This document shows positions 1-4,376 of a stretch of 5,318 nt of DNA, piece after piece. Position 1 is the first letter of the stretch. Every line of letters starts with the position of its first letter. The notes beneath the pieces are model-generated. The model did not search any database, had not been told where the DNA came from, and saw only the letters and a program-made list of their open reading frames with translations. The DNA is from Escherichia coli (GTDB taxonomy: Bacteria > Pseudomonadota > Gammaproteobacteria > Enterobacterales > Enterobacteriaceae): assembly GCF_044324875.1 (NCBI RefSeq), contig NZ_CP172190.1; one strand, 5' to 3'. A program made the translations under genes and the position numbers.

Positions 1-147
1 GAATGTCGGGCTATTGGCAAGAGCATTGCGAAATACACGCACAGGAACTTCACGCCGGAAACTTTCGCACAGTATGTGGCTGATACGCACACGCCAGAAA
101 TTCAGGCTGCACGAGATGAAGCCGAAAAGCAAATATGCCATGACTAA
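1..147 (+). CDS. 3' end of an upstream gene (last ~48 codons; product not recognised)
   Basis: Frame 1 is open from the window edge to TAA at 145-147 and translates to a natural-looking acidic/helical tail (...AIGKSIAKYTHRNFTPETFAQYVADTHTPEIQAARDEAEKQICHD). The antisense frame is also open but is Arg/Cys/Phe-rich, as expected for the non-coding strand. The start lies outside the window. Confidence 0.35.
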   Translation, partial: ECRAIGKSIAKYTHRNFTPETFAQYVADTHTPEIQAARDEAEKQICHD

Positions 148-173
148 GGCTGTATGAGTATAAAAACGGCGTT

Positions 174-746
174 TCACGTCAAGATAAAATAAATACCTGT
201 ACCTAATATAAAAATGGAGCTACATATACTTATGTACCTTGAGAATGACGGAGTTAATTTATCCCTTATCGTCAAGCTAATAGCTATGTAAATAATATCT
301 GTCAGGAATGATATAAATATAAACAAAACACCCAATATAAAGAAATTTAATGCGATATTTGTATTATCATCTATAAATGCTGGTATTAATGCCGCAAAGA
401 ATAAATACGCCTTTGGGTTTAATAATGGTATAAGTAAAGGTTTTTGTACTTTGCTTTTTTTGTTTTTTTTATTAATTAAACCCATTACCCCTATGTATAT
501 TAAATAGCTTCCACCTAAGATCTTTATAATGTAAAAGTGTTGTTCTATGCTGGATGTTGAAGATAACGTGAAAAGAGATATTACCATGACGATTGCTTCG
601 CCAGATCTTATGTATACACTTGTTTTTATTGATGATTTAAGTCCTTGTGAAAAGGCGTTGTTTATAACCAATGCAACACCAGGTCCTATTGATATAGTTT
701 GAGATAAAGTTACGATAGCAAATGAAAATAATGTTGAATATTCCAT
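174..746 (-). CDS. LysE/RhtB-family amino-acid exporter (small six-helix inner-membrane translocator)
   Basis: 190-aa ORF, strongly hydrophobic with several predicted transmembrane segments. It carries an N-terminal SIGPG motif and a central PLLIPLLNPKAYLFFAALIPAFID segment matching the NPK...LFF...P(A/Q)FI signature of the LysE/RhtB family. Size is typical (about 190-210 aa). The gene is very AT-rich compared with the rest of the window. No strong Shine-Dalgarno is visible upstream of the ATG at 746. Confidence 0.75.
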   Translation of the reverse strand: MEYSTLFSFAIVTLSQTISIGPGVALVINNAFSQGLKSSIKTSVYIRSGEAIVMVISLFTLSSTSSIEQHFYIIKILGGSYLIYIGVMGLINKKNKKSKVQKPLLIPLLNPKAYLFFAALIPAFIDDNTNIALNFFILGVLFIFISFLTDIIYIAISLTIRDKLTPSFSRYISICSSIFILGTGIYFILT

Positions 747-1154
747 ATTTACTTACCATGATATATTTCGCGGGAGCTTTTCATATACATACTCCATTTA
801 TTCTCGGAGCGGATATACATTCATTTATAAAGTCATTCATTTTTCTATCCCCTGGTCTGAGTTTTTGCATTTGTTGTTATGACTATTTAATGCTAATTAT
901 CAGATAACCTTTTTTACACGCCATAAACACGATTATGATTGATGTTTTATATTGTCGATATTTCGTTGTCCAGACTGTATATGTCTGGAAATTTGTTTGC
1001 ATACGGGTTCGTTCCGTTTAGCTGGCTTTTTGGATGAGAAAGTTTGCTGTTTTGACCCGTTCGCGCTTCTGAACGGGGGTTTGGTGTTCTTTTGCGCGGC
1101 GTCTCCGATCCGCTCCCACACCTCCAAACCAAATACCGAAACCCTGCAAACCAA

Positions 1155-1232
1155 GCGAGTGGCGGCTCCGCTCGCCGCAGCCCCAGCGACCGAGCGTTAG
1201 CGAGCAAGTGGGCGAGGAAGCGGAAGTGAACC
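1155..1232. other. Putative primosome assembly site (PriA-type ssi/pas-like hairpins) flanking the origin
   Basis: GC-rich island in an otherwise AT-rich origin region. CCGCTCGCCGCAGCCCCAGCGACCGAGCGTTAGCGAGCAAGTGGGCGAGGAAGCGGAAGTGAACC closely parallels, from memory, the pMB1/pBR322 sequence just downstream of the ColE1-type origin (CCGCTCGCCGCAGCCGAACGACCGAGCGCAGCGAGTCAGTGAGCGAGGAAGCGGAAGAGCG), including the GAAGCGG core. A 6-bp stem hairpin CGCTCG...CGAGCG lies at 1169-1196. Confidence 0.35.
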
Positions 1233-1301
1233 GTAGCCAGGTTGAGCACATACGCACGGTTTTTCGACAGGTGATATGCGCCGAACCCGCATGAATACTG
1301 G

Positions 1302-1310
1302 ATTTCCACA
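1302..1310 (+). promoter_or_regulatory. DnaA-box-like 9-mer (ATTTCCACA)
   Basis: 8 of 9 match to the TTWTNCACA DnaA box consensus, in the same orientation as the two other boxes, upstream of the AT-rich repeats. Confidence 0.4.
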
Positions 1311-1397
1311 GGGTTGAGCGGGGTTTTTGCTAAAGTCCGCGAAGTGGATTTTTGTAACATCTTGTTTTTTCTTGTTTTTCCTTTTGCGCACCCCAAG

Positions 1398-1406
1398 TTT
1401 TCCACA
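1398..1406 (+). promoter_or_regulatory. DnaA box (TTTTCCACA)
   Basis: Full match to the relaxed consensus TTWTNCACA, located about 20 bp upstream of the AT-rich 13-mer repeats, the expected place for DnaA-assisted unwinding. Confidence 0.5.
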
Positions 1407-1426
1407 GGCTCGCTGTTAAGTTTTTA

Positions 1427-1465
1427 GATCTTGTTTTTAAGATCTTGTTTTTAATACTTGTTTTA
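1427..1465. repeat. AT-rich DNA unwinding element: three tandem 13-mers (GATCTTGTTTTTA x2, ATACTTGTTTTA) with Dam GATC sites
   Basis: Direct repeats at 1427-1439, 1441-1453 and 1454-1465, resembling the oriC 13-mer consensus GATCTnTTnTTTT. Further copies of CTTGTTTTT lie at 1361-1369 and 1371-1379. The block sits between a DnaA box and the iterons. Confidence 0.6.
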
Positions 1466-1508
1466 GGGTCGAATTTTCTTATGGAATTCAAGAGTTTAGA
1501 AGACTATA

Positions 1509-1591
1509 GGTAATATAATTTAAGGTAAAGGCAATATGATTTAAGGTGGATAGGCAATATGATTTAAGGTAAAGGCAATATGATTTAAGGT
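1509..1591. repeat. Iterons: four direct repeats with ~21-23 bp periodicity (core GGCAATATGATTTAAGGT)
   Basis: Exact 18-mer GGCAATATGATTTAAGGT at 1530-1547, 1553-1570 and 1574-1591, plus a degenerate copy GGTAATATAATTTAAGGT at 1509-1526. The spacing of about two helical turns and the position directly upstream of a Rep_3 gene are the classic iteron arrangement. Confidence 0.85.
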
Positions 1592-1592
1592 A

Positions 1593-1601
1593 ATATCCAC
1601 A
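1593..1601 (+). promoter_or_regulatory. DnaA-box-like 9-mer (ATATCCACA) between iterons and the rep promoter
   Basis: 8 of 9 match to TTATCCACA, immediately after the last iteron. Confidence 0.4.
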
Positions 1602-1617
1602 GGAAAAGGGATATTAA

Positions 1618-1658
1618 AATTAAATCATATTGCCTTTACCTAAAGGAATGTTTATATT
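1618..1658 (+). promoter_or_regulatory. rep promoter (-35 TTGCCT at 1630-1635, 17-bp spacer, -10 TATATT at 1653-1658) overlapped by an inverted iteron (autoregulatory operator)
   Basis: 1622-1640 is the exact reverse complement of the 19-bp iteron core GGTAAAGGCAATATGATTT; extended to about 24 bp there is one mismatch. Inverted-iteron operators over the rep promoter are characteristic of Rep_3 initiators (dimer binding, autorepression). The -35 element lies inside this inverted repeat. A GAGGG Shine-Dalgarno sits at 1678-1682, 7 nt before the ATG at 1690. Confidence 0.6.
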
Positions 1659-1689
1659 TTACTCATTGCCTTAGGTTGAGGGATTTACA

Positions 1690-2391
1690 ATGTCGGATCT
1701 GATTGCCTACAAATCCAATGCACTGGTTGAGGCCAGCTATAAATTGACTCTTCAGGAACAGCGATTCTTGTTACTTTGCATTGGTCGATTGAAGTCGGGT
1801 TCTGATGCAGAATCCACTGAATTGCAAAAGACCATGACTGTTACCGCCGAAGAGTATTTCGACTCATTCCCTGATATGGGGCGGAAAAATGCCGAGGTTC
1901 AGCTACAGGAAGCAATTGATCGTTTGTGGGACAGGTCGATCATCCTTAAGGACGATGAGAAGCGCGAGGAGTTCCGCTGGATCCAGTATCGGGCACAGTA
2001 CGCTAAAGGTGAGGGCAAAGCCCAAATCACTTTTTCAGATGCGGTCATGCCTTATCTGACACAGTTGAAGGGGCAATTTACTAGAGTTGTAATTAAGAAT
2101 ATCTCCAATTTATCAAGAAGTTACAGCATAAGAATATACGAACTTCTCCAGCAATTCCGCAGCACAGGGGAACGTATTATCGCCCTCGATGATTTTCGCT
2201 CAATGCTTGATATAGAGCATAAATATCAAACATATAAGTCTCTGAACCAGCAATTATTAAGACCTTGCGTTGACGAACTGAATCAAAAAAGCGACTTGGC
2301 TGTAACGCTTGAGACGATCAAGAAGGGGCGCACGGTTGTAGCCCTGCATTTTCGCTTCAAGGAAGACAAACAGATCAAGATGACGATCTAA
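1690..2391 (+). CDS. repA: Replication initiator protein, Rep_3 family (iteron-binding RepA/RepE/pi-type)
   Basis: 233-aa ORF with good Shine-Dalgarno and promoter, directly downstream of the iterons. The N-terminus (YKSNALVEASYKLTLQEQRFLLLCIGRL) and the segment YSIRIYELLQQF...LDDFRSMLDIEHKY...YKSLNQQLLRPCVDELNQKSDL...KKGRTVVALHFRF parallel, from memory, pSC101 RepA, F RepE and pPS10 RepA. Length is within the family range (about 230-320 aa). Confidence 0.9.
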   Translation: MSDLIAYKSNALVEASYKLTLQEQRFLLLCIGRLKSGSDAESTELQKTMTVTAEEYFDSFPDMGRKNAEVQLQEAIDRLWDRSIILKDDEKREEFRWIQYRAQYAKGEGKAQITFSDAVMPYLTQLKGQFTRVVIKNISNLSRSYSIRIYELLQQFRSTGERIIALDDFRSMLDIEHKYQTYKSLNQQLLRPCVDELNQKSDLAVTLETIKKGRTVVALHFRFKEDKQIKMTI

Positions 2392-2402
2392 AATCGATTT
2401 TA
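2389..2402. repeat. 14-bp perfect palindrome TAAAATCGATTTTA overlapping the rep stop codon (copy 1)
   Basis: Self-complementary sequence read directly. The 13-mer AAAATCGATTTTA recurs exactly 90 bp downstream. Candidate protein-binding site; function unknown. Confidence 0.5.
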
Positions 2403-2410
2403 AGGCATCT

Positions 2411-2437
2411 AAAACGCCATCTGGTTCGTTTTTTTGG
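2411..2437 (+). terminator. Possible weak intrinsic terminator downstream of rep
   Basis: AAAACGCCATCTGGTTCGTTTTTTT: imperfect A/U-rich stem (AACGCCA / TGG..CGTT) followed by a 7-T tract, 20 bp after the rep stop. Confidence 0.35.
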
Positions 2438-2479
2438 TGTCAGGTATGCGATGGTACTACCAAGCAAATAAATTGCGTC

Positions 2480-2492
2480 AAAATCGATTTTA
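2480..2492. repeat. Second copy of the palindromic 13-mer AAAATCGATTTTA
   Basis: Exact repeat of the palindrome at the rep stop codon. Confidence 0.5.
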
Positions 2493-3218: not shown

Positions 3219-3531
3219 GTTGACATCCTCCATGCCCTGAAGGACGGGGTTTTACAGCACACCGGATAACTATCTCGACATGGATATTGATACACGTTAA
3301 AAATACGTGACGCGTTTCTGGCAGATATCTGAGGTCTATTTCGCCGTGTTAGCCACACTGTCAGAAACGCGTTCAATTTCTCCCGTTGAGCTGATATGCT
3401 CATCACCGCAATCACGGTAGTGTCCGAAGACGAACCGTTAATGCATCTTCCCCCCGATACTGGGCTTTCGGGGGGAATATTTACTCGGTGCGCCGTAAAA
3501 CCCCGTCCTTCAGGGCATGGAGGATGTCAAC
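3219..3531. repeat. 313-bp element bounded by perfect 37-bp terminal inverted repeats (MITE-like element or invertible segment); interior 239 bp
   Basis: 3219-3255 GTTGACATCCTCCATGCCCTGAAGGACGGGGTTTTAC is the exact reverse complement of 3495-3531. The interior contains its own inverted-repeat pair (3310-3373) and a 9-bp G/C stem hairpin (3449-3476). No convincing CDS inside, and no target-site duplication is evident at the boundaries. Confidence 0.6.
3310..3373. repeat. Inverted-repeat pair B: ACGCGTTTCTG (3310-3320) and CAGAAACGCGT (3363-3373), 42-bp spacer
   Basis: Perfect 11-bp inverted repeat (15 of 16 if extended), sharing the CGCGTTTCTG core with pair A. It lies inside the 37-bp-IR element. 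Confidence 0.5.
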
Positions 3532-3838: not shown

Positions 3839-4376
3839 ATGCCATAGCGCAAAACAATTTCGTTTCACAGATGTGACTTACAATCAAACTGTGCAACATA
3901 AATCACAAAACAAGAAGGTTTTGTTATTATTTTGTTGATGAGTTGTTTTTCGTTGGTTGTTTTTTTGAGGCGTACATACGCGCACAAATGTAAAACTAAA
4001 TTCGTGTTTTCGATAATTTTAAGGCCACAATCATTATGGCATTTTTTATCCTGATCGCCGTCAAAATCTGTCCTTCATGGCAGGATTTACGGCGATCCGG
4101 ATAACACCAAAGATACCTACATGCTCATTCCCCTGTGGTTTCCAGGATATCTTTCCTGTTTTCTGTGCTGTTCATCGCGCCGCCATACCCCGTAACGACT
4201 GCGCTCAGTACCCCTGAAATTTCGCTCGCCGGAAACACGCGGGTGTTGTTTTAACGTGTCCCGGTAGCGGTGTCCAGGCAGGTATGCTTCCGCCAGCGGA
4301 GTTGTTGATCTTGTGTTCTGTTTTTGGCTAGTATTTGTCCGAAAACCTGTCGCTCCGGCGACCAACTAATCTCCCG

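Follow-up and report, generated by a model that had tools for sequence, protein, structure and literature searches.

We investigated a 5,318-nt stretch of Escherichia coli DNA (contig NZ_CP172190.1; hereafter the window), which is essentially one entire small plasmid, and focused on an element on its + strand at 1165-1258 that lies upstream of a replication initiator gene. This rep gene (1690-2391, + strand) encodes a Rep_3-family protein (Rep3_N, E = 2.1e-36; Rep3_C, E = 8.6e-20), annotated as WP_011666799.1, a protein accession that is also annotated in the plasmid pMG828-2, and a LysE-family gene is located on the minus strand at 174-746. The plasmid pMTY9803_Col2 (NZ_CP135677.1, 5310 bp), which is typed as non-mobilizable and belongs to replicon cluster 1778, matches the window from end to end with 99.7% identity. 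Window 1167-2483 is ~96% identical to the 4091-bp pMG828-2 family and ~80% identical to the pIGWZ12-like plasmids, both of which are Rep_3 'MOBQ41' plasmids (PMC6856555). We propose that the element is probably the single-strand initiation (ssi) hairpin of this pMG828-2/pIGWZ12-type Rep_3 replicon, at which priming of the PriA type would take place.

A sequence-only reading of this DNA had described window 1155-1232 as nearly collinear with the sequence beside the pBR322/ColE1 origin, and the alignments bore this out far beyond chance. Thus, in a BLASTN search with window 1100-1300 as the query, 1168-1225 matched ColE1 (NC_001371) 1309-1364 at 50 of 58 positions (86%; two 1-nt gaps; E = 2e-13), and a local alignment with a pMB1/pUC-type sequence, taken from the vector-derived contig L079, gave 60 matches in 72. 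The 13-mer quoted in that reading, GAGGAAGCGGAAG, is indeed exact in the pMB1/pUC-type copy, and its first 12 bases match in ColE1. A profile of 14 homologs found a single match in the window, at 1165-1257 on the + strand (E = 1.8e-23). The limits of the element had to be redrawn around a core that stood, as 1155-1166 proved to be the flank of a ColE2-like parent plasmid and the right edge reaches ~1258, and the Rep_3/iteron origin that had been recognized next to it was substantiated by the Rep3_N and Rep3_C domains at 1690-2391 and by iterons at 1506-1612.

In ColE1, the matching segment lies ~110-165 nt beyond the RNA/DNA switch (GGAAAAACGCC at 1191-1201), on the RNA II-sense strand, and 30 nt past a DnaA box (ColE1 1271-1279). 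We take ColE1 1309-1364 to be the defined ssiA site, judging by its position, by PMC3167613 and by the pBR322 maps. The signal called ssiA or n'-pas (primosome assembly site) has been placed at this position of ColE1, downstream of the origin, and it is a lagging-strand primosome assembly site that is kept in vectors with the pBR322 origin; the ColE1 homolog of the window element is accordingly described there as a single-strand DNA initiation signal (PMC3167613). Judged by its alignments, window 1165-1258 (+) belongs to the ssiA(ColE1)/n'-pas sequence family. Vector contamination or an assembly artifact was ruled out, since the identity to vector sequence is 83-86% and not 100%, and the plasmid was assembled independently in two other records. 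The element itself is of an ordinary, very common and long-known kind, with low novelty. Literature searches returned nothing that joined the ColE1 primosome assembly site with iterons, or AAGCGG with the primosome.

We then modeled the core of the element (1165-1229, + strand), as supported by the alignments and by covariation, as a hairpin with stems P1 to P5. The outer stem P1 pairs CCGCT (1168-1172) with AGCGG (1219-1223), and its 3' half is part of the hexanucleotide AAGCGG (1218-1223, + strand), a motif common to the phiX174-type n' (PriA) recognition sites. P2 (1175, 1176 and 1178 with 1217, 1216 and 1214, respectively) is invariant among 33 variants, P3 pairs CCCA (1182-1185) with TGGG (1209-1212), P4 is a single pair (1187/1208), and P5 (1191-1195/1200-1204) includes tandem G.A/A.G pairs at 1192-1193/1202-1203 and carries the apical loop GTTA (1196-1199). 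Outside the hairpin, a 3' extension (1230-1258, + strand) contains the conserved block GCACATACGCAC (1246-1257). This block, of the form GCAC(A/T)TACGCAC, follows AAGCGG by ~23 nt, a distance that is fixed in the Rep_3, RepL, ColE2-like, IncI2, IncX1 and F copies, and its ColE1 form, CCTTACGCAT, is a looser match. The heptamer GAAGCGG occurs once in the window (1217-1223, + strand), which is within chance, as at least one occurrence was also obtained in 74 of 200 shuffles, and GAGGAAGC was unchanged in 33 of 33 variants, partly because the collecting pattern demanded it.

The 33 distinct variants were gathered from plasmid records and from a scan of a genome collection, filtered with nhmmer. 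The scan pattern, GCTCGCCGCA-N28-42-CGAGGAAGC, was too loose: of the 120 loci listed, nhmmer confirmed 29 as homologs, several of which stem from cloning-vector contamination, the remaining loci were chance matches in GC-rich genomes, and the scan is uninformative on taxonomic range. Among these variants, which come from unrelated replicons, 10 of the 19 pairs had changed on both sides. The double-change cells numbered 39, as compared with 12.0 +/- 2.6 in column shuffles (the observed value was reached in 0 of 500), and a control in which the partners were slid by 1-3 columns gave 0-10. CCGCT/AGCGG of P1 is exchanged for GTGCT/AGCAC (F and copy 2 of the ColE2-like plasmid) or CTGCT/AGCAG; P3 occurs as CCCA/TGGG, GTCGA/TCGAC, CTCA/TGAG or CCCG/CGGG; 23 sequences have C-G at P4 and 10 have T-A; and the tandem G.A/A.G pairs of P5 give way to G-C/A-T in a ColE2-like copy and, in the F type, to G-C/G-C. 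Since G.A/A.G (96) far exceeds C.T/T.C (8) among the non-canonical cells, the folded strand would be the + strand, which carries AAGCGG. The consensus register of the middle stem given by RNAalifold did not fit the RepL and F variants and was replaced by the hand-built model. By its pattern of covariation, the element contains an imperfect hairpin on the + strand. As for other hairpin signals, an ABC-primosome hairpin was not found, as 1165-1258 contains no TTWTNCACA sequence with up to 1 mismatch (the nearest are at 1261-1269 and 1302), and neither was a Frpo-type promoter, as the conserved element measures 65-95 nt against ~300 nt and its stems are without -35/-10-like hexamers. A G4-type, primase-only signal, homologous to the complementary-strand origin of phage G4 and recognized by DnaG directly, is unlikely in view of the assignment to the ssiA(ColE1) family.

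The origin region downstream of the element was searched for DnaA boxes (TTWTNCACA) and repeats. It contains a DnaA-box-like site, ATTTCCACA, with one mismatch (1302-1310, + strand), an exact DnaA box, TTTTCCACA (1398-1406, + strand), and another DnaA-box-like site at 1593; four DnaA boxes have been given for pIGWZ12-family origins (PMC6856555). The AT-rich unwinding region (1420-1466, + strand; direct repeat family D2) is composed of GATC-containing, 13-mer-like units, (A)GATCTTGTTTTT, and is followed by about five iterons with ~22-bp units, AGGCAATATGATTTAAGGTAA (1506-1612, + strand; repeat family D1 and inverted repeats I3, I4 and I13), and by an inverted iteron copy (1620-1644), also detected among the inverted repeats, which is likely the rep operator. 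When pMG828-2 was compared with the pIGWZ12-like plasmids, 1182-1300 was 95-100% identical and the AT-rich region 93-100%, as against 60-70% for the iterons and mostly 73-95% for rep. Within the element, the diverged Rep_3 lineages are 100% identical, as against 27-50% in its flanks, and the ~40 nt 3' of the conserved block (1259 to ~1300) are 95% conserved between them. This pattern fits a division into parts that would be read by host factors and parts that would be read by the plasmid's own initiator. In the accessible literature, the parts of the pMG828-2/pIGWZ12 Rep_3 origin are iterons, an AT-rich region and DnaA boxes only (PMC6856555), and the assignment of an ssi element to this family is new.

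We next compared this arrangement with those of known origins. The ColE1/pMB1 ssiA shares with the window the same hairpin, with AAGCGG in its 3' arm, and the same 3' block. However, the ColE1 copy is found 110-165 nt 3' of its origin, on the strand that is displaced and serves as the lagging-strand template, whereas the polarity is reversed in the window: on the hairpin strand, the iteron origin (1302-1612) comes 3' of the element, as in F ori2. In addition, the ColE1 origin is driven by RNA II and DNA polymerase I and that of the window by Rep and iterons, and the middle stem has C-G pairs in the window in place of the tandem G.A pairs of ColE1.

Indeed, the profile search detected a copy in the F plasmid at 48,024-48,117. 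This copy is on the sense strand of repE (Rep3_N/Rep3_C), 329 bp upstream of the gene, and after it come two DnaA boxes, AT-rich sequence with TAGATCTTCTTTTTT, four iterons, the operator and repE. The F ori2 in record L135 runs from the ssi (8025-8118) through the DnaA boxes (8143-8160), the AT-rich region (8165-8212) and the iterons (8255-8350) to repE (8447), and the window presents the same series at 1165-1258, 1302/1398, 1420-1466, 1506-1612 and 1690, with the hairpin likewise on the rep-sense strand. Both AT-rich regions contain TAGATCTT..TTTTT, and the distance from ssi to rep is 329 bp in F versus 464 bp in the window. The F copy is diverged (local identity 40/52; outer stem GTGCT/AGCAC; apical GGGC-GAA-GCCC), and F has another copy on the other strand, past repE/incC and ~330 bp downstream of repE, as against a single copy in the window. 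Imber, Low and Ray reportedly described a primosome assembly site at mini-F ori2 in 1983 (PNAS 80:7132), and Nomura et al. 1991 are said to have described the ssi of F and ssiA(ColE2). The F homolog found here by profile may correspond to the published F site. On the basis of this homology, an ssi beside an iteron origin is already exemplified by F ori2, and the window adds a further Rep_3 family to those arranged like F ori2.

A joint between replicon backbones had been put forward in the sequence-only reading to account for the pBR322-like patch, and the alignments located such a joint within the element, with ColE2-like sequence on its left and Rep_3 sequence of the pMG828-2/pLH10-b-1-G type on its right. 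On the left, window 140-797 (with the LysE gene), 948-1079 and 1071-1226 correspond to the ColE2-like LysE plasmid L004 with 92-99% identity (948-1079 to L004 1024-1155, 98.5%; 1071-1226 to L004 2600-2757, 92%), and window 1-115 is an internal fragment of a ColE2-type rep (98% to L004 2146-2260). The rep of L004 contains Replicase and PriCT_1 domains, and its origin core, ...tatcagataacagcgccc, ends at 2599. Window 948-1166 (+ strand) is a remnant of such a ColE2-type replicon, in which the rep-upstream region (948-1079) is fused to the segment that follows the origin core (1071-1166); the fusion at ~1071-1079 spans a short microhomology, and the ColE2-type rep and origin core are cleanly deleted. 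On the right, window 1167 to ~4186 is 98.8% identical to the Rep_3/MobQ plasmid pLH10-b-1-G.

In a four-way alignment, the window follows L004 to 1166 and the Rep_3 plasmids L134 and L003 from 1185, where the Rep_3-type marks begin with C at a C/T site (1185) and continue with the GTTA apical stem-loop, replaced by GCCGCCAGGC in the ColE2-like copy. Window 1071-1184, with the left part of the element and its left flank, derives from a ColE2-type plasmid, which, in contrast to the window, has retained its rep and origin, and the hairpin is of the Rep_3 type from 1185 onward, apical stem-loop included. The crossover interval in between, TCCGCTCGCCGCAGCCC (1167-1184), comprises 17-18 nt that are identical in both parents, and the homology blocks shared with relatives start at 1167 or stop at 1226. 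According to these alignments, a ColE2-like LysE backbone has crossed over with a pMG828-2-type Rep_3 replicon inside the 5' arm of the hairpin, and every stem of the recombinant window copy is intact. The ssi is the sole homology between L004 and the Rep_3 plasmids L003/L006, which rules out, for these parents, that it is part of a shared mobilization (MOB) module.

A chimeric copy was also found at 91-190 (-) of L120, with a 5' half (GTGCT...TCTCAT) of the type of ColE2-like copy 2 and a 3' half (TCGCC GAGGAAGCGG...) of the RepL-1902 type; its P1 and P3 are mismatched and the covariation is broken. This suggests a second, independent recombination inside the element. As the ssi is the one sequence common to otherwise unrelated small plasmids, and strands would be exposed and primosomes assembled there, the hairpin could be a preferred breakpoint for the exchange of replicon, mobilization and cargo modules among small enterobacterial plasmids, a tentative idea to which we give rather little weight. 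The narrowing of a replicon-swap crossover to 17-18 nt in a hairpin is new, as is the covariation-supported hairpin model. As a separate observation, 2570-3020 of L004 (NZ_CP148345.1) contains two origin cores, ...tatcagataacagcgcc, at ~2583-2599 and 2843-2866, each followed ~90-100 nt on by a different ssi variant, so that origin and ssi form a tandem module.

At least 5000 PLSDB plasmids contain the core of the element, and the element occurs in 2392 of 5426 complete E. coli genomes (44%). A single genome has as many as 23 places; in total, 4563 places are plasmid-borne and 187 chromosomal, the latter perhaps in integrated plasmids or prophages. Among the matches listed, none had a specific annotation: most were covered by no feature, and a few lay under a coding sequence for a hypothetical protein. 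This ~60-90-nt element adjoins ColE1-type (RNA-primed, with Rop), ColE2-type (Replicase/PriCT_1), RepL/HTH-type and Rep_3 replicons, the RepL/HTH-type carriers being 1.5-1.9-kb plasmids, and is further carried by IncI2 and IncF plasmids and by an Arsenophonus plasmid. In an IncX1-type Rep_3 remnant and in the RepL plasmids, it lies upstream of rep on the rep-sense strand. The earlier suggestion of a modular signal shared across unrelated replicon types thus holds, as the same element stands beside ColE1, ColE2, RepL and Rep_3 replicons and the F copy is homologous to it. Such sharing was already established, as far as Nomura et al. 1991 (Gene 108:15) is relayed in PMC6854812, PMC7690428 and PMC2831885, by signals in F, R6K, R100 and ColE2, and the ssi has been handled as a recurring homologous element in later plasmid papers (PMC2831885, PMC6854812, PMC5935869, PMC7690428). 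Recognition of the element accounts for short homology islands between unrelated plasmids and for some mosaic junctions, and its annotation is of value, as it is otherwise rediscovered as an odd 'pBR322-like' patch or taken for vector contamination.

Among the smallest carriers, the 1552-bp RepL/HTH-type plasmid L005 (OW849301.1) contains at 120-179 a 60-nt segment with 98% identity to ColE1 1462-1521, ~230 nt from its ssi. We take this ColE1 segment, by its position, to be the origin of transfer (oriT)/bom region, and the 1.5-kb RepL/HTH plasmids seem to hold little beyond a rep, an ssi and a borrowed oriT.

For the function of the element at the Rep_3 origin, we started from ColE1/pBR322, where host PriA binds the hairpin and recruits PriB, DnaT, DnaB-DnaC and DnaG, leading to primed DNA synthesis. 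In the window, Rep and DnaA would open the AT-rich region at 1420-1466, and DnaB would unwind leftwards, away from the Rep-bound iterons, to expose the + strand at 1165-1258. Once single-stranded, this strand would fold into the imperfect hairpin and present AAGCGG. As the 3' end of the element faces the origin, the + strand would be the leading-strand template for the leftward fork, and a PriA primosome at the element would lay the primer for leftward extension of the leading strand, while the DnaB of this primosome would move 5'->3' toward the origin, filling the gap between ssi and origin and possibly founding a second fork. We infer the PriA dependence, the direction of unwinding and the leading-strand priming by the window copy from sequence comparisons. 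At the oriV of RSF1010, ssiA and ssiB, as reported by Honda et al. 1988 (cited in PMC7690428), are said to lie beside iterons and an AT-rich region and to start leading strands after helicase unwinding. It is the plasmid primase RepB', rather than PriA, that recognizes the RSF1010 sites, which are not homologous in sequence to the element and offer an analogy only. Leading-strand starts at ssi signals are ascribed to Masai et al. 1990 (JBC 265:15124), as cited in PMC3167613. The F ori2 layout suggests that host PriA may contribute to these small iteron plasmids, which is an old idea.

Several points weigh against this proposal. The mechanism of ColE1 is not directly transferable, because the orientation of the element to the origin is reversed with respect to ColE1 and the ColE2-like plasmids, both of which have it 3' of the origin on the displaced strand. 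The hairpin model was hand-built from the same sequences on which it was scored, and the pattern with which the variants were collected fixes part of stems P1 and P2. Furthermore, the computed folding energy as single-stranded DNA was no better than that of shuffles (z -0.03 to -0.29) in calculations that covered both strands of 1150-1260 and six homologs, with nearest-neighbor parameters that give no credit to sheared G.A pairs and GNA-type loops; as thermodynamic folding is thus not distinctive, the structure is argued from covariation. Finally, the pHW126-like plasmids (pIGRK, pIGMS31 and pHW126) carry an accessory ssi-like palindrome upstream of iteron-like repeats and rep, and this ssi is dispensable, its loss resulting in a higher copy number and multimers (PMC6854812; bioRxiv 10.1101/2022.12.05.519187). 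These plasmids are reported to be rolling-circle replicons with unrelated Rep proteins, and their palindrome has been described as resembling the ssi of diverse replicons. Since their ssi is dispensable for replication, the role of the window element may, by analogy, be auxiliary.

The pHW126-like phenotype also bears on a possible end-of-round role, in which the element would serve to prime the final Okazaki fragments, or for PriA restart of forks held up at the Rep-iteron complex, and would avert gaps and multimers. The + strand is the lagging-strand template for a fork that reaches the origin from the left, and the element points its 3' end at the origin both in the window and in F, whose two copies converge on ori2-repE-incC. 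The same geometry, however, fits leading-strand priming at an outward fork, and sequence cannot separate the two. The appearance of multimers and a higher copy number upon loss of the ssi, with replication kept (PMC6854812; bioRxiv 10.1101/2022.12.05.519187), is in line with this role, but the analogy is loose, as the plasmids concerned are reported rolling-circle replicons, and we regard the end-of-round role as unlikely, if worth keeping in view. We also consider it doubtful that the element serves conjugative establishment in place of vegetative replication, whereby it would be on the transferred strand, a few hundred nucleotides from oriT, and a primosome would convert the incoming single strand to duplex in the recipient. 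The STAXI and EFASI motifs, which are typical of plasmid leading regions, lie on the same strand of the window. In native Rep_3 plasmids, the element follows mobC by ~10 bp, beside the mobC-mobA intergenic oriT (PMC6856555), a ColE1-type oriT/bom is 100-230 bp away from it in ColE1 and the 1.5-kb RepL plasmids, and ssi signals have been widely proposed for complementary-strand synthesis in the recipient (PMC7690428). However, the element is intact in the window plasmid, which lacks a relaxase and is typed as non-mobilizable. The leading region of F enters the recipient first, 5'->3', and the F copy in the same arrangement (+ strand of NC_002483) would, from the polarity of F transfer, be on the non-transferred strand. 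A role in recipient-strand synthesis is plausible in mobilizable relatives and less likely as a general explanation of the arrangement.

Two further explanations set aside a role in priming. If the element were only a recombination scar, that is, a patch of shared homology at the crossover with no present function for the Rep_3 replicon, this would account for the crossover within it and for L120 as a second chimeric copy with broken covariation; this is highly improbable, since the element is native to the Rep_3 family and 100% conserved between lineages with 27-50% identical flanks, its position is also kept in F ori2, and the window recombinant retains all stems. A function as RNA, either as a terminator or as a regulatory hairpin on a + sense transcript, would be equally well suited by the covariation, the G.U-type wobble and the sheared G.A pairs, but it is barely credible: no Rfam family matches 1165-1258, even at E<=1, no T-run follows the hairpin, and its contexts, past the ColE1 origin, behind mobC and ahead of iteron origins, have no transcription unit in common. 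In addition, the ColE1 homolog is described as a signal on single-stranded DNA (PMC3167613).

Elsewhere in the window, two RNA motifs scored above the Rfam gathering score, STAXI (RF01728; 4409-4568, + strand; 89.1 bits, E = 1.5e-18) and EFASI (RF02957; 5046-5168, + strand; 71.7 bits, E = 2e-13). Both share the strand of the ssi hairpin, the plasmid being small and non-mobilizable, and no long open reading frames are near them; such motifs are typical of the leading-region neighborhoods of plasmids (ssb, antirestriction). A ~313-bp element at 3219-3531 resembles a miniature inverted-repeat transposable element, with 55-nt inverted repeats at its ends that are 91% complementary (GTTGACATCCTCCATGCCCTGAAGGACGGGGTTTTAC...), and partial copies of its arm sequence recur at 4046-4104. 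Outside the window, the pMB1 ssi was encountered in contigs assigned to unrelated taxa, including a Candidatus Caldipriscus metagenome-assembled genome, Paracoccus salsus, Streptomyces, Cutibacterium and Streptococcus, and the pUC lac junction (GAGCGCCCAATACGCAAACCGCC) adjoins it in L079 and L026, which points to contamination of public assemblies by cloning vectors.

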